Of a stretch of 61,646 nt of DNA, positions 33 through 9,899 are shown one piece after another; position 1 is the stretch's first letter; each line of letters opens with the position of its first letter. A program made the position numbers and the translations under genes. The stretch is from the NCBI GenBank assembly GCA_003171065.1, contig PMXQ01000089.1, positions 3,325 to 64,970 of the forward strand, given 5' to 3'. The notes below the pieces were generated by a model, which did not search any database, was not told the origin of the DNA, and saw nothing but the letters and a program-made list of their open reading frames with translations. This DNA is from Chloroflexota bacterium (GTDB lineage Bacteria > Chloroflexota > Limnocylindria > Limnocylindrales > CSP1-4).

Positions 33-1427
33 CTACTCCATCGTCGCGGCGAACATCCCGTCCGTGCCGAACTCGATCGGCGCGAGCGGCCGGACGATCT
101 CGCAGCGCCCGGTTGCCAGCACTTCCGCCAGCGCGGGCTCGCTGACGTACAGCAGCTCGAGGTGCTTGGTGTCGCGGATCCGGACGATCCGCGCCTCGGC
201 CGGCTCGACCCTGATGCAGCTGGCGATGGCGACGGCGAGCGCTTGCCGGTCCGTGTCCAGCGTCAGAGCGACCCGCGCGCCCTCAGGCGTCTTGGCCGTG
301 ATGCAGTTCATGTACGTCTTGTGGGCGTCCATCTTCTCGACGGCGCGCCGCAGCACGACGTCGGCCATGCCGATGCCGACGGCATTGCCCTCGGTCTCGC
401 CGGTCAGATCGCGGACGACGATCCGCTGGATGCTCGGACCTGCGCCGGTCGGCCCGGTGTAGTAGCGCCCGACGACGTTGGAATCCATGCCCAGGCCGCT
501 GATGTCCTTGCCGATGTAGTCGAGCACCAGGACGTCGATGGTGTCCAGCGGCAGCCGGGCCATCCGCTCGCGGGCCATCACCAGCAGCTCTCGCTCGCGA
601 TCCCAGATCCGGTCGCGCGGCACCGCCTCTATCCGCCAGAGCCTGGCGTACCCGTTCTCGACCAGGGCCAGGCCGAACGGAATGTTCACCTTCGAGACAG
701 TGAACTCGGCGACCGCCGGGATGAGCTCGTGGAAGGTGGCGAAGCCCTGGCGATGGAAGGTGTCGGCGCCCTTCTGTTTGCCGAGCCCGATGGCGATCAT
801 CTTCATCAGGCCGCTCTCGATCTCGCCCGTGAAGTCGGTGTGCGGCTTGACGCGGTTGATCGGGACGATCGCGTCGGCGCCTTCGAGAGCGAGACGGTCG
901 ACGAAGACCGGGACGCCGGGCCGGACCTCGCCCAGCTCGACCGTGTCCATGCTCGATCGAATCTCGCAGCCGATCGATTCGGGTGTCATGCCGTAGGAGG
1001 CGAGCACCTCGAGCTGGCCCTCCGCCGTGGCGCCGCCGTGGCTGCCCATGGCCGGCACGACGAAGACCTCGGCGCCGGCGGCGCGGACCCATGCGACCGC
1101 GGCACGAACGACCTCGTCGATCCGGTCGATGCCGCGGCTGCCGGCCGCCAGGCAGACCCGCGAGCCGGGCTTGATCACCGCGCGCTGCGGTTCGAGCGCG
1201 GCCACGACGGCAGCGGCCACGTCTGTCACCTCGGTTGCGTCCATGCGATGCCGGACCAGGGCCCAGCGCGGCAGGTTGCCGCGCATGAACTCGGCGAACG
1301 GCTCCTGACGGGAGGCGCGCGACGGCATCTCTCCGCCGGCGGGGGCGGGGGCGGCCGGCACGGGCGGGTCGGCCAGCGCGTCGGGTGCGACAGCTGCGGG
1401 GAGGTGCTTCTCGCGGTCCATCGGCAC
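33..1427 (-). CDS. LarA-like (DUF2088 / lactate-racemase family) nickel-pincer-dependent 2-hydroxyacid racemase/epimerase homologue
   Basis: 464-aa ORF. Segments VPAMGSHGGAT and NRVKPHTDFTGEIESG...GLGKQKG resemble the LarA ATGxHR and His/Lys active-site regions. Divergently adjacent to larE-larB and close to larC. The Pro/Ala-rich first ~35 aa may be an over-extended start. Confidence 0.65.
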   Translation of the reverse strand: MPMDREKHLPAAVAPDALADPPVPAAPAPAGGEMPSRASRQEPFAEFMRGNLPRWALVRHRMDATEVTDVAAAVVAALEPQRAVIKPGSRVCLAAGSRGIDRIDEVVRAAVAWVRAAGAEVFVVPAMGSHGGATAEGQLEVLASYGMTPESIGCEIRSSMDTVELGEVRPGVPVFVDRLALEGADAIVPINRVKPHTDFTGEIESGLMKMIAIGLGKQKGADTFHRQGFATFHELIPAVAEFTVSKVNIPFGLALVENGYARLWRIEAVPRDRIWDRERELLVMARERMARLPLDTIDVLVLDYIGKDISGLGMDSNVVGRYYTGPTGAGPSIQRIVVRDLTGETEGNAVGIGMADVVLRRAVEKMDAHKTYMNCITAKTPEGARVALTLDTDRQALAVAIASCIRVEPAEARIVRIRDTKHLELLYVSEPALAEVLATGRCEIVRPLAPIEFGTDGMFAATME

Positions 1428-1488
1428 AACTCTACACGTGTCGGCATCCGGCCTACCGCGCCCGACCGGGGCGGCGGCGGCGAATGGG

Positions 1489-2373
1489 ATGTATCGTCAG
1501 CCGATGCCTCACCACGACCTGCTGGAGCGCGCGCAGTCCGGGCCGGCCGCCGGCGACCCGGTTGCCCTGGAACGGTTCGGCCGCCTGCTGGAGATCGTCG
1601 AGGGTCTCGGGTCGTGCGTGCTGGCACTTTCGGGCGGGATCGACTCGAGCTTCCTTCTGGCGGTCGCGTCGCCGCTGCTCGGCGAGCGCTGCCTGGCGCT
1701 CACGGGCGACTCGGCCGCCGTGCCGGCATGGGATCGCGCCGAGGCCGCGGCCGCCGCCGGGGAGGCGAGCCGCCACGGGACGGGATGGCGGACGATCCCG
1801 ACGAAGGAGCTCGACGACCCGCGCTACGCCCGCAATCCGCGGTCGCGTTGCTACTTCTGCAAGCTCGAGCTCTACGGAGTCGCGGCGGCGATCGCGAAGT
1901 CCGAAGGCTACGCTTGGGTCGTCGACGGCACGAACGCCTCCGACACGCAACGGCTCGACCGGCCCGGCATGACGGCCGGCGCCGAGCTGGGCGTCCGCTC
2001 GCCCCTCGCCGAAGCGGGCATCACCAAAGAGCAGCTTCGATTGCTGGCGCGCTCGATCGGCGTCGAGGGCTGGGACCGGCCCGCTTCGGCCTGTCTGGCG
2101 AGCCGGATCCCGTTCGGCGAGACGATCACCGCCGGCCGGCTGCGGCGCGTCGAGGCGGCCGAGCTCGCGCTCCGGGCCCTGGGCTTCCGCCAGGTTCGCG
2201 TGCGCGACTTTGGGAGCCATGCCCGCGTGGAGGTCGAGGAGGACGAGCTGGCCGGGCTGGACCGTCGGGCGGCCGAGATCCGGACGCGCCTGATCGAGCT
2301 CGGTTTCGAGAGTTGGTCGCCGGCGGCGTATGCCGGAACCGGCGCGGGAGACAGCCCGAATGCGCAGAGATGA
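1489..2373 (+). CDS. larE: LarE, ATP-dependent sacrificial sulfur transferase for nickel-pincer cofactor synthesis
   Basis: PP-loop motif LSGGIDSS and LarE-type cysteine motif SACLASRIPFG. Start placed at ATG 1489; the ORF track starts at 1438 and ATG 1504 is also possible. Confidence 0.85.
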   Translation: MYRQPMPHHDLLERAQSGPAAGDPVALERFGRLLEIVEGLGSCVLALSGGIDSSFLLAVASPLLGERCLALTGDSAAVPAWDRAEAAAAAGEASRHGTGWRTIPTKELDDPRYARNPRSRCYFCKLELYGVAAAIAKSEGYAWVVDGTNASDTQRLDRPGMTAGAELGVRSPLAEAGITKEQLRLLARSIGVEGWDRPASACLASRIPFGETITAGRLRRVEAAELALRALGFRQVRVRDFGSHARVEVEEDELAGLDRRAAEIRTRLIELGFESWSPAAYAGTGAGDSPNAQR

Positions 2374-3208
2374 AGCGGCGGCGCCCGCAGGCCGGGCGCC
2401 CGCAGGGCCGGCGGCTCCCGCAGGGCGGGCGCAGGACGGCGCCTACGCCGCGGGGCTGGAGGAGTTGCTGCGTGCCGTAGCCGAGGGGAGCGTCCCGGTC
2501 GCGGCCGCGCTCGAGTCGCTGCGCCGGCTGCCTTTCAGCGACCTCGGCTTCGCCCGGGTGGATCACCACCGCAATCTCCGCCAGGGCATCGTGGAATTCG
2601 TCTATGCCCCGGGCAAGACTCGCAAGCAGCTGCTGGCGATCGTCGAGGCGCAGCTGGAGCACGACGAGTCGAGCGTCGTTGTGACCCGGGTCGCCGCCGG
2701 GGACGCGGCCGCGATCCGGGTCCTGGCCGAGAAGCGCGGCCTCGAGACGATCTGGCGCGAGCGGGCCGGCCTCGTGGCCATCCCCCGCGCCGTCCCCGAG
2801 GCTCGCGGCCGGCTGCTCATTCTCACCGCCGGGACCTCGGACCTGCCGGTCGCCGAGGAGGCCGAAACCGTCGCCTCGCTCCTCGGGGCCGGCGTCCGCG
2901 TGATCGGCGACGTCGGGGTCGCGGGGCTCCACCGTTTGCTCGGCGAGCAGCCGGAGATCGAGCAGGCCGACGCGATCGTCGTGATCGCCGGCATGGACGC
3001 CGCGCTGGCGAGCGTCGTCGGCGGCCTGGCCCGAGTTCCCGTCATCGCCTGTCCGACCAGCGTCGGTTACGGCGCCTCGTTCGGCGGGTTGAGCGCGCTG
3101 CTGGCGATGCTCTCGTCGTGCGCGCCCGGAGTGGCGGTCGTCGGCATCGACGACGGGGTCGGGGCCGGCACCGTCGGCGCGCTCATCGCCCGCGGCCGGC
3201 CGGCCTGA
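2360..3208 (+). CDS. larB: LarB, pyridinium-3,5-biscarboxylic acid mononucleotide synthase (PurE-like)
   Basis: PurE/AIR-carboxylase-like segments LILTAGTSDLPVAEEA and VIAGMDAALASVVGGL. ATG 2360 overlaps the larE 3-prime end; the ORF track starts at 2330. Confidence 0.85.
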   Translation: MRRDEAAAPAGRAPAGPAAPAGRAQDGAYAAGLEELLRAVAEGSVPVAAALESLRRLPFSDLGFARVDHHRNLRQGIVEFVYAPGKTRKQLLAIVEAQLEHDESSVVVTRVAAGDAAAIRVLAEKRGLETIWRERAGLVAIPRAVPEARGRLLILTAGTSDLPVAEEAETVASLLGAGVRVIGDVGVAGLHRLLGEQPEIEQADAIVVIAGMDAALASVVGGLARVPVIACPTSVGYGASFGGLSALLAMLSSCAPGVAVVGIDDGVGAGTVGALIARGRPA

Positions 3209-3215
3209 CGTCGCC

Positions 3216-4028
3216 TCAGATCGTCATCGCGCTGAAGCCACCGTCGACGCGAACGAGGGCCCCGGTCACAAAGCCCGAGGCGCGCTCCGAGGCGAGCCAG
3301 ATCATCGTCCCGACCAGCTCGTCGGCCTCGCCCAGCCGTCCCGCCGGCGTGTGCCGGAGGATGGCCTCGGTGCGGGCCTCGTCGAGCAGCTTGCGGTTCT
3401 GCTCGGCCGGGAAGAAGCCGGGCACGATGGCGTTCACCCGGATCCGATGTGGCGCCAGCTCGCGGGCCAGGTAGCGGGTCAGGATGTTCACGCCGGCCTT
3501 CGAGACGGAGTAAGTGAGGACGCGCGACAGCGGGATCTCCGAGGAGGCCGACGAGAAGTTGATGATCGTCCCGCCCTGGCCGCGGTCGACCATCGCTCGA
3601 CCGAAGACCTGGCAGGCGATCAGGGCCGACGTCAGGTTCGTGTCGAGGACGCGATGCCACTCCTCGAGGTCCAGCTCGAAGAATGGAGTCGAGCTGTTGA
3701 TGCCCACTGCATTGACGAGGATGTCGACCGGACCGAGAAGCTTCTCCACTTCCACGCGCGCCCGTTCCACCGATGCCTTGTCCGAGGCGTCCAGCGCCAG
3801 GGCGGCGGCTCGGGTGCCTTCGGCCTTGAGCGCGGCCACCAGCACGTCCGCCCGCTCACGCGAGCGGTCCATTACCGCGACCGTGGCGCCCGCCCGGCCG
3901 AAGCCGTGGCACACGGCGCCGCCCAGGACGCCGGCTCCACCGATGACCGCGGCGACCTTGCCGGTCAGGTCGAAGAGGGCCGTGCCGGCCTTGCCCGAAT
4001 TGCCCGAATTGTCTCCGGCCATCGTCAT
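3216..4028 (-). CDS. Short-chain dehydrogenase/reductase, sugar-acid (mannonate/gluconate-type) oxidoreductase-like
   Basis: 270 aa from MTMAGDN. Rossmann motif VIGGAGVLGG and catalytic YSVSK (YxxxK). ATG at 4028 overlaps the stop of the upstream cupin gene (ATGA). The 660-aa track ORF (3216-5198) is an Arg/Pro-rich over-extension. Confidence 0.85.
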   Translation of the reverse strand: MTMAGDNSGNSGKAGTALFDLTGKVAAVIGGAGVLGGAVCHGFGRAGATVAVMDRSRERADVLVAALKAEGTRAAALALDASDKASVERARVEVEKLLGPVDILVNAVGINSSTPFFELDLEEWHRVLDTNLTSALIACQVFGRAMVDRGQGGTIINFSSASSEIPLSRVLTYSVSKAGVNILTRYLARELAPHRIRVNAIVPGFFPAEQNRKLLDEARTEAILRHTPAGRLGEADELVGTMIWLASERASGFVTGALVRVDGGFSAMTI

Positions 4029-4777
4029 GACTCCTGGACCCAGGCGTGGGCCGGGTCGAGATAGGGGGCCATCTGGCGCCCGTCGCCGGCCATGACCCAC
4101 AGGTAGTAGAGCGAGTAACCGGGAGCCGCCACGACCGGGTGGTAGCCGCTCGGGATCGACACCACGTCGCCGTCGCGAACGATGAAGGTCTCCGCGCCAG
4201 CGTCGTCGTAGCGGATCTGGACGCCGAAGCCGCCGGCCGGGTCGACTTTGTAGAAGTAGACCTCCTGTAGCCGGACCTCCTCGGGCGGCCGCTGGCGGTC
4301 GTGCTTGTGGGGCGGATACGACGACCAGTTGCCGGGCGGGTTGATCGTCTCGCCCAGCAGCAGCCGGCTCGCGGCGTGCTCGGGGCCGAGGATCGTCCGG
4401 ATATCGCGGCGCCAGTTGCCCTTGCCGGCCTCGCCGATCCGCTGGTCGCCCGGCCCGATGATGCGCGCCTTCGCCGGGGCCACGCCACCTCCGGGCGCCG
4501 TCGCGATCGCGAGCTGAGCCGGTCGCGTGGCCACGAGCCGCAAAGTCGTGCCGGGCGGCGCGTAGATGGTGTGCCCCGGGCCCTCGAAGACGGACGATCG
4601 CCCGCCCGCCGACCCCAGCGACTCGCCGTCCGCCTCGACGTCGACGACGCCCCTGAGCACGACGACGGCCGTCTCGAGCTTGCCAGCAGACTCGAACGAC
4701 TGGCCGACTTCGAGGTCCGCCAGCGCGAGTCCGATGAGATCGCCTTCTCGCTCGGGGGCGACGAGGGTTCGGGTCAT
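4025..4777 (-). CDS. IolB-family cupin (5-deoxy-glucuronate isomerase-like)
   Basis: 250 aa from MTRTLVAPE. Signature NPPGNWSSYPPHKHD is typical of the IolB family. Forms an operon with the SDR through a 4-nt overlap. Confidence 0.8.
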   Translation of the reverse strand: MTRTLVAPEREGDLIGLALADLEVGQSFESAGKLETAVVVLRGVVDVEADGESLGSAGGRSSVFEGPGHTIYAPPGTTLRLVATRPAQLAIATAPGGGVAPAKARIIGPGDQRIGEAGKGNWRRDIRTILGPEHAASRLLLGETINPPGNWSSYPPHKHDRQRPPEEVRLQEVYFYKVDPAGGFGVQIRYDDAGAETFIVRDGDVVSIPSGYHPVVAAPGYSLYYLWVMAGDGRQMAPYLDPAHAWVQES

Positions 4778-4875
4778 GGCGGTCCTTCCATTTCTCCGGC
4801 GCGCTGGCCCGGATCGGCGAGCTTGTGTCAGACTCGACTGGCTGTCGCCCATAGTGTTGCCGTATCCGCGAGGAG

Positions 4876-6168
4876 ATGCCAGTGGCACAACGCCGCCGTT
4901 GCGCGTGGATCGATGCCTCTGCCGGCGCGTCGGGCGACATGCTGCTGGGCGCGCTTCTCGACGCCGGTGCGCCGCTCGAGGCGGTGGCCGCGGCTATCGC
5001 GGCGCTGGGCGTCGAGCCGATCGAGATCCGGCCCCACCAGGTCCGCCGCCATGGGCTGCGGGCCACGAAGGCCGAGGTCCTGGTCCAAGACGCCGCCGCG
5101 TCTCGCACACTCGGGGACGTGCTCGGCCTGGTCGCCGGGGCGAACCTTGGGTCGGCTGTGGCCGCGTTTGCCCGGGACGTGTTCCTCATGCTGGGCACCG
5201 CGGAGGCCGCCGTCCACGGCGAAGGCCCGGCGCACGTCCACCTGCACGAAGTCGGCGCGCTCGACTCGCTTGCCGACGTCGTCGGCTGTGCCGCCGCGCT
5301 CGACGCGCTTGGTCTGCTCGAGCCGCGTGCCCGGGTCGTGGTCGGCTCCGTCGCGCTCGGCTCGGGGAGCGTGGAGACGGCTCACGGCCCGCTGCCGGTT
5401 CCGGTGCCGGCCGTCCTGGCGATCCTCGCGGGGCGAGGCGCGGCCGTCGCGGCGGGCGGCGACGGGGAGCTGTGCACGCCGACCGGTGCGGCGCTCCTGG
5501 CGACCCTCGCCAATGAGTGGGGCGCGCTGCCGCCGATGCGCATCGAATCCGTCGGCGTCGGCGCCGGCTCCGCGGATCCGACGGGGCGTGCCAACGTCCT
5601 GCGGGTCGTGCTCGGCGCCGCCCTGGCGCCGGCCGGCGTCCCCTGGCGCTGCGACGACCTGATCGAGCTGGAGGCGACCGTCGACGACCTCGATCCGCGT
5701 CTCTGGCCCGCGGTCCTCGACGCGCTCGTTGCGGCGGGCGCTGTCGACGCCTGGCTGGCGCCGGTCGTCATGCGCAAGGGCCGGCCTGGGCACGTGGTGA
5801 CGGCGCTCGTCGCCGAGGAGGCCGTCGACGCCGCGACTCGCGCCTTGTTCACCCAATCGACCACGCTCGGCGTTCGGTTGCGACCGGTCGCTCGCCGGGC
5901 TCTGCCCCGCGATGAAGTCGTCGTCTCGGTGGAAGGCTGCGACGTTCGGGTCAAGCGCGGCCTGCTCGACGGTCGGCCCGTGACGGTGCAGGCGGAATAC
6001 GCCGACGCCGCGGCTGCGGCGGACCGGCTCGGCCTCCCGGTGCGGGCCGTTCTCGAGCGCGCCGCGGCTCTCTCGCGTGCCGCGGCCGAGGCCGAATGCG
6101 GCGCCGCGGGTGGCGCGTCGCGTGCCGCGGCCGAGGCCGACCCGGAGGCGGCAGGCCGAGATGAGTGA
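4876..6168 (+). CDS. larC: LarC, nickel insertase (DUF111 family) for nickel-pincer cofactor
   Basis: 430 aa with the N-terminal signature IDASAGASGDMLLGALLDAGAP characteristic of LarC/DUF111. Confidence 0.85.
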   Translation: MPVAQRRRCAWIDASAGASGDMLLGALLDAGAPLEAVAAAIAALGVEPIEIRPHQVRRHGLRATKAEVLVQDAAASRTLGDVLGLVAGANLGSAVAAFARDVFLMLGTAEAAVHGEGPAHVHLHEVGALDSLADVVGCAAALDALGLLEPRARVVVGSVALGSGSVETAHGPLPVPVPAVLAILAGRGAAVAAGGDGELCTPTGAALLATLANEWGALPPMRIESVGVGAGSADPTGRANVLRVVLGAALAPAGVPWRCDDLIELEATVDDLDPRLWPAVLDALVAAGAVDAWLAPVVMRKGRPGHVVTALVAEEAVDAATRALFTQSTTLGVRLRPVARRALPRDEVVVSVEGCDVRVKRGLLDGRPVTVQAEYADAAAAADRLGLPVRAVLERAAALSRAAAEAECGAAGGASRAAAEADPEAAGRDE

Positions 6169-6691
6169 CCCGGGCGAGCCCTCGCCCACTACGACGATCA
6201 TCGTCATGGGCGTGTCCGGCTGCGGCAAGTCCACGGTCATGCGAGCCCTCGCCGACGAGCTCGGCTGGGCCACGGCGGAAGCCGACGACTTCCACTCGGC
6301 GGCCAACGTGGCGAAGATGCGCTCGGGCCACCCGCTCACGGACGATGACCGGTGGCCCTGGCTCGAGGCACTCGCCTCGTGGATCGGCGAGCGCGAGCGG
6401 GCCGGAGAGAACGCCCTGGTCACCTGCTCGGCGCTGCGGCGGCCTTACCGCGATCTGCTGCGGCGCGGTCATGCGTCGGTCTGGTTCGCTCACCTCGTCA
6501 TCGAGCCGGCCGCCATAGCCGATCGCCTAGAGCACCGGCGGGGCCACTATATGCCCGCGGCGCTGCTCGCCAGCCAGATCGAGACGCTCGAGCCGCTCGA
6601 CCCCGACGAGCCCGGCGCCGCGATCCCCGCGCACCGACCACCGCTAGAGATCGTCGCGGACATCCTGGCTCGACTCGCACAGAATCCGTAA
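6161..6691 (+). CDS. gntK: Gluconokinase (GntK-type)
   Basis: 176 aa from MSDPGEP. P-loop GVSGCGKST and FHSAANVAKMRSGHPLTDDDRWPWL are typical of gluconate kinase. ATG 6161 overlaps the larC stop at 6166-6168. Confidence 0.85.
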   Translation: MSDPGEPSPTTTIIVMGVSGCGKSTVMRALADELGWATAEADDFHSAANVAKMRSGHPLTDDDRWPWLEALASWIGERERAGENALVTCSALRRPYRDLLRRGHASVWFAHLVIEPAAIADRLEHRRGHYMPAALLASQIETLEPLDPDEPGAAIPAHRPPLEIVADILARLAQNP

Positions 6692-6942: not shown

Positions 6943-9228
6943 ATGGCCAAGGTTCAGGATCGGTATCTGGTTGTCGACCCCTGGAGGATCGTCGAGGACG
7001 GCTTCCATCCGGAGAGAAGCCGGGTCTCCGAGTCCCTGTTCTCGCTGAGCAATGAGCACATGGGCGCGCGGGGCCACTTCGAGGAGGAGTATTCCGGCGA
7101 CACCCTCATCGGGTGCTATCTGAATGGGATCTACGAAGAGCACTACCTCAAGGAGCCGACCACCTACAAAGGGATCTCCAACCGGATTGCCTTCATGGTC
7201 AACACGGTCAACTGGCTATACGCGCACATCGAGTTGGGCGGCGAGGCTCTCGACCTCAAACGAAGCCAGTTCTCCGAGTTCCGGCGCGAGCTGGACTTCC
7301 GAACGGGTCAGGTGATCCGCGAATTCACGTGGACGACCAAGGCCGGCCAGCGACTGAAAGTCGCGTTCTCGCGGTTCCTGAGCATGAAGACAAAGGAACT
7401 TGGGTTTCAGCGGATCAGTCTCACGCCGCTCAACTTCACGGCCGCGATAGACGTCACTCTGGGCCTGGACTTCTCCGTGCCTCATGAGACGTATCGCCAG
7501 AACTTCTGGAAGTGCCCCAGGAGCGACGCCCAGGCGGACAGATGGGCCATCATCGGCACGAGCACAGGAATAAAGCACAAGCTCTTCGCGGGCTCGCGAA
7601 TCATGTCGGCCGCATCGATCGATGGAACACCACTGAAGAATGCCAAGTTCGCCGGCAGCCGTTTGACCCTCAACCTCGTCGAAGGCAAGGAACAGCACCT
7701 CGACCGGGTCAGCGTTCTGTACACAACACGAGACCCAAAGGCCAGCGTCGTCGATACCTGGACGCGCGGCGTGGAAATGCTCGACTCACTGGACCAGGCG
7801 GACTACCAGAGCGCCCTCCAGGACAACGTCGACTACTGGCAGGACTTCTGGAAGAAGGCCGACATTTCGATCGATGGCGATCCGGAAGCGCAGCAGGGCA
7901 TCCGGTTCTGCATCTTCCAGATGCAGCAGACATATCGAGGGGCCGTCGACGGTTCGAACATCGGCGCCAAGGGACTGACCGGCGAGGCGTACAACGGCAA
8001 CGCCTTCTGGGATACCGAGACGTACTGCCTGCCCTACTATCTGTTCAGCAATCCAAAAGCTGCCAGGGCCCTGATCGACTTCCGCCTCAAGACCTTGCCG
8101 CAGGCCATGGAGCGGGCGAAGAGCCTCGACTGCAAGGGGGCTTGCTACCCCATCGCCACCACAGACGGCACCGAGAGCTGCACGCTCTGGCAGCACGCCA
8201 GCCTTCAGTTCCAACCGACGACGGCCGTGGCCTACGCCATCTGGCATTACGTCGGGGTCACCGGGGATGTCGACTTCCTATACACCGAAGGCGTCGAGCT
8301 GCTGATCCCGATCTGCCGGTTCCTGGCCAGCCGCGGGGACTGGTCGCCCCGAACTCACAAGTTCGGCTACTACGCGGTCATGGGCCCGGACGAATTCCAG
8401 ATGATGGTGAACAACAATTGCTACACGAACTACATGGCCAAGCGGACCTTCACGTACGCGACCAAAGTGTTGGCGGACATGGACAAGGCGGCGCCAGCCA
8501 GGAAGAGCGAACTGTTCAAGCGCCTCGACTGCACCGCCGAGGAGATCGCGGCCTGGCAGAACATGGCCGACAACATGGCTATTCCCGTAGATCCCGAGAC
8601 GGGGATATTCGAGCAGCACGAGGGCTTCTTCGATCTGCCGCATCTCGACGTCGACGCGATCCCCGTAACCGACTTCCCGCTGTATCACAACTGGTCATAC
8701 GATCGGATCTATCGCAACGACATGATCAAACAGCCCGACGTGCTGATGTTCATGTTCCTGTACAACCAGTCGTTTTCGCCGGCCGAGAAGAAGGCCAACT
8801 ACGACTACTATGAACCGCGCTGCATCCACGAGTCGTCGCTGTCGCCGTCGCTACATTCCATCTTCGCCGCCGAGCTTGGCCTCAAGGACGAGGCGTTCAA
8901 CTTCTTCAACTTCGCCACTCGTATCGACCTCGACAACTACAACCGCAATACGGCCGAAGGGATCCACATCACTTCCATCGCGGCCGCATGGATGAACGTC
9001 GTCTACGGTTATGGTGGCATGCGATCCGATGGCGACATGCTCGTCTTCAACCCGACAATCCCGGATCGCTGGAAGTCATACAGCTTCGGGATCGCCTATC
9101 GCGACTCGATCATCCGCGTCGACGTATCTCAGGAGAGCGCTCGCTTGAAGGTAACCGAAGGCGCTCCGATCCAGGCTCTAGTTCGAGGCCGGGTCCGCGA
9201 GATCAATGAGGAAGGGCTGACCCTCTAG
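6943..9228 (+). CDS. Glycoside hydrolase family 65 disaccharide phosphorylase (maltose/trehalose/kojibiose phosphorylase type)
   Basis: 761 aa with a GH65-like N-terminus (VDPWRIVEDGFHPE...SLFSLSNEHMGARGHFEE) and a central GEAYNGNAFWDTETY region. Lower GC and a K/N/F/Y/I-richer composition than its neighbours. Confidence 0.9.
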   Translation: MAKVQDRYLVVDPWRIVEDGFHPERSRVSESLFSLSNEHMGARGHFEEEYSGDTLIGCYLNGIYEEHYLKEPTTYKGISNRIAFMVNTVNWLYAHIELGGEALDLKRSQFSEFRRELDFRTGQVIREFTWTTKAGQRLKVAFSRFLSMKTKELGFQRISLTPLNFTAAIDVTLGLDFSVPHETYRQNFWKCPRSDAQADRWAIIGTSTGIKHKLFAGSRIMSAASIDGTPLKNAKFAGSRLTLNLVEGKEQHLDRVSVLYTTRDPKASVVDTWTRGVEMLDSLDQADYQSALQDNVDYWQDFWKKADISIDGDPEAQQGIRFCIFQMQQTYRGAVDGSNIGAKGLTGEAYNGNAFWDTETYCLPYYLFSNPKAARALIDFRLKTLPQAMERAKSLDCKGACYPIATTDGTESCTLWQHASLQFQPTTAVAYAIWHYVGVTGDVDFLYTEGVELLIPICRFLASRGDWSPRTHKFGYYAVMGPDEFQMMVNNNCYTNYMAKRTFTYATKVLADMDKAAPARKSELFKRLDCTAEEIAAWQNMADNMAIPVDPETGIFEQHEGFFDLPHLDVDAIPVTDFPLYHNWSYDRIYRNDMIKQPDVLMFMFLYNQSFSPAEKKANYDYYEPRCIHESSLSPSLHSIFAAELGLKDEAFNFFNFATRIDLDNYNRNTAEGIHITSIAAAWMNVVYGYGGMRSDGDMLVFNPTIPDRWKSYSFGIAYRDSIIRVDVSQESARLKVTEGAPIQALVRGRVREINEEGLTL

Positions 9229-9899
9229 GGCGCGGAGGCGGGGGTCGATACGTCTATGGCAGCGGCCGTCAGCAGGTGTTGGAAGCTGGTGATGACCATG
9301 TCCGCGTCCTTGAGGTTCGCGGGTTTGCCAATGCCGACGCTGCCCATGCCGCCGCGCCGCGCCGCTTCGATGCCCGCTTCGGCGTCTTCAAACACGACGC
9401 AGTCCTCGAACGGGATGCCCAGCTCCGACGCGGCCCGGGTGAAGATCTCGGGGTCTGGCTTTGCCTTCGAGACCCTGGTACCGTCGATGACGACCTCGAA
9501 CAAGCAGGCGATCTTGAGGCGGTCGAGGATCAGCGGTGCGTTCTTGCTGGCAGAGGCCAGGGCGATCTTCACGCCCTTGCTCTTGAGGTAGTCGATGTAG
9601 TCGACCGCGCCGGGGAAGATCTCGTGCGGGTCCATCTTGCTGATGTACTCGACGTACCACTCGTTCTTGCGGGTCGCCATCGACTCACGTTCACCTTCGC
9701 TGGCGTCGAGCCCGCCAATCTCCAGCAGGATCTCGAGCGAGCGAACGCGACTCACGCCCTTGAGCCTCTCGTTCTGCTCCTCGGAGAAATCGAAGCCGAG
9801 CTCGTTGGCCAGCCGCTTCCACGCCAGGTAGTGGTACTTGGCCGTGTCAACGATGACCCCGTCAAGGTCGAAGATGGCTGCTCGCATCGTCCTGGTCAC
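9225..9899 (-). CDS. pgmB: Beta-phosphoglucomutase (HAD superfamily)
   Basis: HAD motif I FDLDGVIVDT, plus YHYLAWKRLANELG and RLKGVSRVRSLEILL, typical of beta-PGM. Convergent with the GH65 gene; the 3-prime ends overlap by 4 nt. Confidence 0.9.
   Translation of the reverse strand: MTRTMRAAIFDLDGVIVDTAKYHYLAWKRLANELGFDFSEEQNERLKGVSRVRSLEILLEIGGLDASEGERESMATRKNEWYVEYISKMDPHEIFPGAVDYIDYLKSKGVKIALASASKNAPLILDRLKIACLFEVVIDGTRVSKAKPDPEIFTRAASELGIPFEDCVVFEDAEAGIEAARRGGMGSVGIGKPANLKDADMVITSFQHLLTAAAIDVSTPASAP

Follow-up and report, generated by a model that had tools for sequence, protein, structure and literature searches.

A group 22 LarA homolog in a predicted glucuronate pathway gene cluster of a Chloroflexota genome

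The DNA analyzed here (the window) is a 61,646-nucleotide stretch of a Chloroflexota genome. Its first 6.7 kb (positions 33–6691, approximately 70–75% G+C) hold a homolog of the lactate racemase LarA (here larAH), the genes larB, larC and larE for synthesis of a cofactor called nickel-pincer nucleotide (NPN), a short-chain dehydrogenase/reductase (SDR), a cupin of the IolB/KduI family and the gluconokinase gene gntK. We hold, with moderate confidence, that this cluster most likely routes glucuronate into the pentose-phosphate pathway by way of mannonate/gluconate epimerization on the LarA homolog, a member of LarA group 22. An earlier note on this DNA had sketched the same route, from a uronate through mannonate and a LarA-type C2 epimerization to GntK, and the gene neighborhoods of relatives now support it through comparative genomics. 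The proposal is built on gene identity, protein fold, residue conservation and conserved gene context, from which we infer every substrate and the order of the steps.

In the proposed pathway, the cupin would isomerize a uronate aldehyde, glucuronate, to the 2-ketose D-fructuronate in the place of the uronate isomerase UxaC, and the SDR would reduce fructuronate to D-mannonate with NAD(P)H. The group 22 enzyme, equipped with NPN made by LarB, LarE and LarC, would then invert C2 and turn D-mannonate into D-gluconate, following the LarA mechanism of proton-coupled hydride transfer over a 2-keto intermediate with His130 and His196. GntK would phosphorylate gluconate to 6-phosphogluconate, and a Gnd-like enzyme, whose gene lies at another place in the genome, would take this product into the pentose-phosphate pathway. 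The host assembly (3.02 Mb, 151 contigs, 88% complete) contains one such Gnd-like gene, on contig C36, that is 46% identical to the cluster-linked Gnd (6-phosphogluconate dehydrogenase) of relatives. UxaC, UxaE (tagaturonate/fructuronate epimerase) and UxuA (mannonate dehydratase) were not found in this 88%-complete genome. As UxuA is missing, mannonate would be left with no dehydratase exit, and the epimerase together with GntK would supply one. A search of the host genome found no second LarA homolog either, so larBCE appear to be dedicated to the group 22 enzyme, which would explain the interleaving of lar and pathway genes.

Family, fold and active site of the LarA homolog

The LarA homolog scored 508.6 bits (509.1 bits in the genome search) against the NCBIfam model NF052515 ("nickel pincer cofactor-dependent isomerase, group 22"), which has a cut-off of 400. 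Its sole other NCBIfam match was a 23-bit match to the malate racemase (MAR) model. The match to Pfam Lar_N was weak (24.9 bits), and a six-frame Lar_N search of the host genome missed the protein entirely. Against the PDB, phmmer touched only 4NAR, a Thermotoga maritima structural-genomics protein (E 0.029, 64 residues), and a profile of 21 group 22 sequences retrieved nothing at E up to 1. The earlier note had suggested placing the protein among the characterized LarA subfamilies; it lies far from the LAR and MAR groups, and NCBIfam assigns it to group 22. No GntE-type NCBIfam match was obtained, and identity to 4NAR in the structural alignment was 15%. By sequence, the protein is a member of LarA group 22 (Desguin 2020) and not a GntE, a class made up of LarAH groups 19 and 20 and LarAH15; the connection drawn earlier with a D-gluconate 2-epimerase holds for its sugar-acid setting, though not for the clade.

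In the survey that defined the groups, 354 LarA homologs were sorted into 25 groups, of which groups 19 and 20 are D-gluconate 2-epimerases (Desguin 2020). Group 22 had 20 members of "unknown function" (Desguin 2020, Tables S1, S3), with SDRs (45%), LarE (30%), UxaC (20%), a COG0129 dehydratase, TRAP transporters and sugar kinases as gene neighbors. Nine further enzymes of the classes LAR, HHR, MAR, GntE and HGR were subsequently described (Urdiain-Arraiza et al. 2024). In NCBIfam, group 22 still has a generic name. Group 22 now comprises 3,900 clusters at 50% identity (E up to 0.001), or 1,138 at E up to 1e-30, and it is among the largest LarA clades without a function. NF052515 exceeded its cut-off in 44 of 151 sampled Chloroflexota genomes, a tally that includes a genome flagged as unpublished (G160); the tally of the Lar_N search likewise includes such a genome, G053. 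Nothing beyond the counts depends on these genomes. The genome of Haloferax volcanii, a genetically tractable archaeon used as a control, also exceeded the NF052515 cut-off, and a literature search found no paper on its group 22 gene.

The AlphaFold (AF2) model of the LarA homolog, with a pLDDT of 84.4, has the two-domain LarA fold. Among the Foldseek matches listed, the top 15 rows (ranks 1–19) were all LarA family members with probability 1.0, including 9EIA, 7S91, 9Q3K, 4NAR and 5HUQ. VIA gave Z scores of 18.8–21.1 to all LarA-family structures over residues 51–440, with the next unrelated fold at Z 6.6; the alignments covered 305–328 residues with an rmsd of 3.4–5.0 and 13–18% identity to the solved structures. 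Residues 1–40 (window 1302–1421) form a Pro/Ala-rich extension that is predicted to be disordered (pLDDT approximately 40). This N-terminal extension of about 40 residues is kept in close relatives of 457–462 amino acids and is missing from more distant members.

The catalytic residues of LarA were located by hhalign against nine canonical Chloroflexota LarA homologs, with numbering according to L. plantarum LarA. At 93% probability, H130 corresponded to LarA H108, H196 to H174 and K209 to K184. H225 sits 16 residues past K209, as H200 does past K184, although hhalign shifts H225 by two columns. In the phmmer alignment, H196, K209 and H225 fall on the PH...K...H of 4NAR, with H225 on the histidine of the TFH motif of 4NAR. 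All four residues (H130, H196, K209 and H225) are invariant in 21 homologs down to 43% identity. Since they are both aligned and invariant, the machinery for NPN tethering, nickel ligation and two-base hydride transfer appears to be present, and the alignment that the earlier note had proposed thus finds both catalytic histidines, the NPN-tethering lysine and the nickel-ligand histidine conserved. Of the residues that in LarA hold the substrate carboxylate or assist catalysis (R75, Y294, Q295 and K298), R75 may correspond to R98 or R102. Affiliation with the single-histidine LarA subfamily (9Q3J/9Q3K, PMC12611868) was rejected, as both histidines are kept, and aldo-keto reductase-type NPN enzymes (NphT, PMC13524815) were rejected as alternative users of the cofactor, as the locus encodes no aldo-keto reductase.

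Gene neighborhoods, the SDR and the cupin

We compared 80 loci with their 10-kb flanks, in which open reading frames (ORFs) were called and clustered and recurrent clusters annotated; 48 of these represent Chloroflexota species-level genomes. All compared genomes are metagenome-assembled genomes (MAGs) and are mutually related. Among 185,579 species genomes, the closest loci all came from Chloroflexota MAGs (Limnocylindrales-like; fen, peat, soil), and the next-closest from Thermomicrobiales, Poribacteria and a few Bacillota. The taxonomy of these relatives indicates a high-GC, Limnocylindrales-like Chloroflexota host and led to rejection of an actinomycete. The following counts refer to Chloroflexota loci whose LarA homolog is at least 64% identical to that of the window. 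Of these loci, 28 carry an orthologous SDR, and at least 11 have it immediately upstream of larAH in the same orientation, sometimes with an overlap. UxaE was encoded in 11 loci, Gnd in 5, and a kinase in 14, drawn from three unrelated families (GntK, PfkB and FGGY, 5 each).

Four loci (L005, L006, L008 and L011) share the order (LacI-)solute-binding protein (SBP)-ABC importer-cupin-UxaE-SDR-(larB, larE reversed)-LarAH, and the cupin-to-LarAH part of this arrangement recurs on the shorter contigs of L002, L015 and L017. L013 reads LacI-ABC importer-UxaE-SDR-LarAH-UxaC, while UxaC-FGGY kinase-SDR-LarAH is found in L018, L019 and L044, Gnd-PfkB-UxaC-LarAH in L024, and Gnd-PfkB followed by UxaE-SDR-LarAH in L007. 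L003 and L012 carry UvrD-(Gnd)-gntK-larC / cupin-SDR / larB-larE / LarAH; the same arrangement without Gnd is seen in L001, L031 and the window, and the adjacency of larC and gntK is kept in L001, L003, L012 and L031.

Of 227 SDR models, the best NCBIfam match of the SDR was PRK08277, a D-mannonate oxidoreductase, at 268.9 bits, approximately 70 bits ahead of the gluconate 5-dehydrogenase models that came next. The SDR carries the sequence IGGAGVLGG, as expected from the GGxGVLGG-type Rossmann motif described for it previously, and the best model is in line with its earlier assignment to the D-mannonate/fructuronate oxidoreductase type, with the qualification that the score stays under the cut-off of that model. 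The solved structures nearest to it are those of hexonate and gluconate 5-dehydrogenases, the gluconate 5-dehydrogenase entry 1VL8 among them. A KduI-KduD function in pectin (DKI/DKII) degradation was rejected for the cupin-SDR pair, with scores of 23.5 vs. a cut-off of 250 bits for the KduI equivalog and 167 vs. 339 bits for KduD.

The cupin, described earlier as IolB-type, indeed passed TIGR04378, the IolB equivalog (217 bits, cut-off 205), and matched Pfam KduI/IolB at 251.6 bits. PGAP-type annotation rules would name it IolB, and JGI labels its close homologs 5-deoxy-glucuronate isomerase. Nevertheless, several lines of evidence point to another substrate, and the cupin is best read as a uronate isomerase that would replace UxaC. 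The 88%-complete host genome yielded no IolD over the cut-off (best 170 vs. 715 bits) and no IolE. The cupin occurs in 13 of the compared loci and UxaC in 6, never together (19 loci), and in otherwise syntenic operons the cupin takes the part that belongs to UxaC in sister operons. Of the 14 genomes with the cupin in the cluster, 13 yielded no UxaC in a genome-wide search. Conversely, five genomes have cupin-less clusters: four with UxaC in the locus, and that of L009 (G010), which has neither gene in its cluster and encodes UxaC elsewhere. In four of these five, no KduI/IolB protein was found. IolB itself catalyzes an identical aldose-ketose shift, on a uronic acid that has no C5 hydroxyl. 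One report connects E. coli KduI with hexuronate conversion (PMC3578941). The alternation of cupin and UxaC is the element newly added by this locus.

Three further sets of neighborhoods were recorded. In L026–L030 (approximately 65–69% identical), the SDR-LarAH pair has a Cupin_2 protein upstream and an EamA exporter downstream, with a DegT-type aminotransferase, Glucosamine_iso-family, SIS and ceramidase-like proteins, a GntR regulator and an SBP nearby. This setting may represent an amino-sugar-acid pathway that shares the same reductase-epimerase module. In L020 and L023 (LarAH 70–73% identical), which have no SDR, larAH comes directly after genes for a xylose-isomerase-like TIM barrel and an FGGY kinase, and an ABC sugar importer is encoded next to them; a 71% identical FGGY kinase is encoded on contig C91 of the host genome. 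In the Poribacteria loci L049–L080 (43–47% identity), a UbiA prenyltransferase, a xylose-isomerase-like TIM barrel and a sulfatase follow in conserved order, sometimes with a UbiX-like flavoprotein between them. A different function is probable there because these loci have no SDR or uronate genes.

Known systems and alternative substrates

The logic of the pathway has already been published, and what the window probably encodes is a variant built with another LarA clade and a substitute isomerase. The hexuronate operon of T. maritima has the order gnd-uxaR-uxaE-uxaD-gntE-gntK (PMC3750489), and for the GntE of Thermotoga, NPN-dependent epimerization between mannonate and gluconate has been demonstrated (PMC7583248). 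The T. maritima enzyme, GntE2, corresponds to LarAH20 and GntE1 of Corynebacterium glutamicum to LarAH19 (PMC3750489, PMC7583248). The predicted route follows the same logic of fructuronate, SDR reduction, LarA-family C2 epimerization, kinase and Gnd, and some Chloroflexota loci are arranged uxaE-SDR-larAH, others carrying a hexonate kinase and gnd. In its fold, its catalytic residues and its NPN-binding residues, the window enzyme also agrees with the Thermotoga and C. glutamicum GntEs. It differs from Thermotoga GntE in belonging to the group 22 clade, in its low identity to 4NAR and in having Thr-Asp in place of Glu-Val/Ser behind the second catalytic histidine. As a gene set, the cluster differs from the Thermotoga operon in that an IolB/KduI cupin would stand in for UxaC, the lar genes are interleaved, and the locus lacks UxaE and a transporter. 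Compared with the published context of group 22, the SDR, sugar kinase, UxaC and LarE neighbors agree; UxaE, Gnd, the three types of kinase and the alternation of cupin and UxaC are additions from the window locus and its relatives. Compared with IolB and KduI, the cupin shares the family (PF04962) and, by prediction, the aldose-ketose chemistry on a uronic acid; it differs in sitting where sister operons have UxaC, in alternating with UxaC, and in the missing IolD and IolE.

Several observations weigh against the glucuronate reading. In the locus, including its left flank, there is no transporter, regulator or UxaE. None of the 13 proteins purified by Desguin 2020 is linked to group 22, and a literature search found no assay of any group 22 member. 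Within the active site, Thr197-Asp198 occupy the positions of LarA F175/F176, where GntEs carry Glu-Val/Ser (signature from PMC11770544). When the C-terminal domains alone were aligned, hhalign returned a probability of 0.1, and W358/T359 (Ala-His in GntE) could not be aligned. No lysine is found at the position of K298, in a region (Y294-K298) that aligns poorly and has low pLDDT at residues 324–327. The SDR score of 268.9 bits falls just below the PRK08277 cut-off of 281. As the cupin passes the IolB equivalog cut-off, a 5-deoxy-glucuronate-like substrate is possible on sequence, and the alternation with UxaC may reflect only one or two events, because the genomes are all incomplete, related MAGs. 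Finally, gene neighbors differ below approximately 64% identity, as in L036, L037 and L039, where a cytochrome P450 and LysE lie beside larAH. This change of context suggests that the family is not monofunctional and confines functional inference to the subclade of the window.

One alternative is a related pathway with other substrates. The LarA homolog would invert C2 of a different sugar acid, and the cupin would act on another uronate, such as mannuronate, guluronate or iduronate, instead of glucuronate, with gluconate still the substrate of GntK. Candidates for the epimerized acid include fructuronate, whose product 5-keto-D-gluconate would then go to an SDR of the gluconate 5-dehydrogenase type, as well as L-idonate/L-gulonate, altronate/allonate and an aldarate. 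The gluconate 5-dehydrogenases among both the next NCBIfam matches and the nearest solved relatives of the SDR are in line with this, as are the other partners of the SDR-larAH pair in L026–L030 (Cupin_2, EamA, DegT aminotransferase, SIS, GntR), and Desguin 2020 suspected a mannonate isomer or an aldarate as the native substrate of GntE1. We nonetheless regard such substrates as unlikely, given that PRK08277 outscores the gluconate 5-dehydrogenase models and that the closest relatives carry UxaE, UxaC, Gnd and gluconate-type kinases, all of which belong to the branch leading from glucuronate/galacturonate through fructuronate to mannonate. A reversed order of the last steps seems less plausible again. 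Here D-mannonate would first be phosphorylated by the GntK-type kinase, leaving the group 22 enzyme to act as a 6-phosphomannonate/6-phosphogluconate 2-epimerase. Extracts of L. suebicus convert mannonate to 6-phosphomannonate and on to 6-phosphogluconate (PMC6978723), a dehydratase-free route like the one predicted here, which differs in placing the kinase before the epimerase and for which the genes, including that of the epimerase, are unidentified. Since three unrelated kinase families adjoin larAH in relatives, homology does not fix the substrate of the kinase, and the missing GntE loop signature would fit a somewhat different substrate. However, the window kinase scores well above the GntK/IdnK gluconokinase cut-off, all assayed sugar-acid LarA enzymes use the free acid (PMC7583248, PMC11770544), and there was no sequence pointer to a phosphate-binding pocket, though no dedicated search was made. 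If the kinase did act first, the group 22 enzyme could be the missing 6-phosphomannonate 2-epimerase that is wanted for redox-neutral galacturonate fermentation.

It is highly improbable that the cupin is a genuine IolB in a cluster left over or modified from inositol catabolism, or that the genes are chance neighbors of a LarA homolog that racemizes lactate or malate. The TIGR04378 match, the name 5-deoxy-glucuronate isomerase given to close homologs of the cupin wherever they are named, and the faint malate racemase match of the LarA homolog would be accounted for in this way. Yet neither IolE nor an IolD above its cut-off was found in the genome, and a C2-epimerase could not act on the C2-deoxy product that IolB makes. 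The SDR-larAH adjacency is kept across 28 species beside uronate genes, nothing like a lactate permease or malic enzyme gene is nearby, and the LarA homolog is distant from the LAR and MAR groups.

Taking glucuronate catabolism through mannonate and gluconate as the preferred reading, we tentatively suggest, at somewhat lower confidence, that two independent non-orthologous replacements rebuilt a Thermotoga-type shunt in Limnocylindria-like Chloroflexota. The cupin would have replaced UxaC, and group 22 would provide a second NPN-dependent mannonate/gluconate or 6-phospho-mannonate 2-epimerase that evolved independently, with substrate-binding residues of its own. If true, the same sugar-acid epimerization enlisted nickel-pincer chemistry on at least two occasions, and the alternation of the cupin with UxaC would put right a systematic misannotation as IolB and establish a second family of uronate isomerases. 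With a firm substrate for group 22, thousands of proteins labeled "hypothetical / DUF362 / lactate racemase domain" in Chloroflexota of soil and peat, in Poribacteria and in haloarchaea would gain an annotation. The compact and self-contained window locus would be convenient for cloning.

Gene layout and flanking genes

Third-position GC singled out one coding frame per segment in the first 6.7 kb of the window, and together with family searches confirmed all seven genes of the described cluster (Table 1). Much of the earlier description of the locus holds: larE, larB and larC are present by their matches to TIGR00268, NF033503 and Ni_insertion, larAH on the minus strand is divergent from larE on the plus strand, and the cupin stop and SDR start share an ATGA overlap of 4 nt (4025–4028). 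Other details needed adjustment. The LarA-like gene had been given as 33–1427; its ORF is indeed open to the GTG at 1427, while the likely true start is the ATG at 1421, which yields a protein matching the length of the database entry. The gntK start codon had been said to overlap the larC stop. The two genes do overlap by 8 nt, at a ATGAGTGA junction, but the gntK ATG at 6161 does not itself cover the larC TGA (6166–6168). The earlier note had described the SDR and cupin as interleaved with the lar genes and had omitted that they are on the opposite strand; the pair has larB on one side and larC on the other.

Table 1. Features of the gene cluster and its two divergent intergenic regions, with window coordinates.
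Feature	Position	Strand	Family evidence and remarks
LarA homolog (larAH)	33..1421	-	NF052515; 462 aa from ATG 1421; ORF open to GTG 1427
Divergent intergenic region larAH/larE	1422..1488		67–82 bp depending on larE start
larE, ATP-dependent sacrificial sulfur transferase	1489..2373	+	TIGR00268, 244.7 bits (cut-off 150)
larB, nicotinic acid adenine dinucleotide (NaAD) carboxylase/hydrolase of NPN synthesis	2330..3208	+	NF033503, 235.8 bits (cut-off 175); Pfam AIRC
SDR, predicted fructuronate reductase / D-mannonate 5-dehydrogenase (UxaD/UxuB-SDR type)	3216..4028	-	PRK08277
IolB/KduI-family cupin, predicted uronate ketol-isomerase	4025..4777	-	Pfam KduI; TIGR04378; 250 aa from ATG 4777
Divergent intergenic region cupin-SDR unit / larC-gntK	4778..4875		No consensus promoter found
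larC (LarC1+LarC2 fused), CTP-dependent nickel insertase	4876..6168	+	Pfam Ni_insertion, 389.5 bits; TIGR00299, 176.5 bits; NF052512, 118.2 bits
gntK, P-loop GntK/IdnK-type gluconokinase	6161..6691	+	TIGR01313, 175.1 bits (cut-off 113.75)

In-frame start candidates for larE are GTG 1438, ATG 1489 and ATG 1504, and the start of larB overlaps the end of larE (2330 vs. 2373). For the cupin, the likely true start at ATG 4777 is preceded by a GGAAGGA ribosome-binding site and gives the same length of 250 amino acids as in homologs. Translation of larC may instead begin at GTG 4882. The Walker A motif of GntK is GVSGCGKS. Because this pair is on the minus strand, the cluster falls into four transcription units, larAH (-), larE-larB (+), cupin-SDR (-) and larC-gntK (+), with two short divergent intergenic regions. 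A promoter and terminator scan of both regions stayed at background, with no sigma-70-like match between larAH and larE. A search of the same two regions for a shared operator returned no palindromes and only an 11/13 match, which is within chance. This match (core GGCACAAC) lies at 1418–1430 and 4879–4891, the 5' ends of larAH and of the long cupin ORF.

To the left of the window, the contig extends for 3.3 kb and contains only SpoIID-like, zinc-ribbon, LURP-one-related and ArsR-DUF2087 genes. To the right of gntK lie a GH65 phosphorylase-type gene (761 amino acids) and a convergent HAD gene (224 amino acids), followed by a UvrD-type helicase. The GH65 and HAD genes (window 6943–9899) have a G+C content of approximately 60%, compared with approximately 72% in their flanks. 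Membership in the pathway of GH65 and the HAD gene, taken as a beta-phosphoglucomutase, was rejected on account of this lower GC and of their being missing from syntenic relatives; two of the latter, L003 and L012, have Gnd directly beyond gntK. From its position directly after gntK, where those two relatives carry 6-phosphogluconate dehydrogenase, the GH65/HAD block looks like an insertion that displaced gnd or followed its loss.

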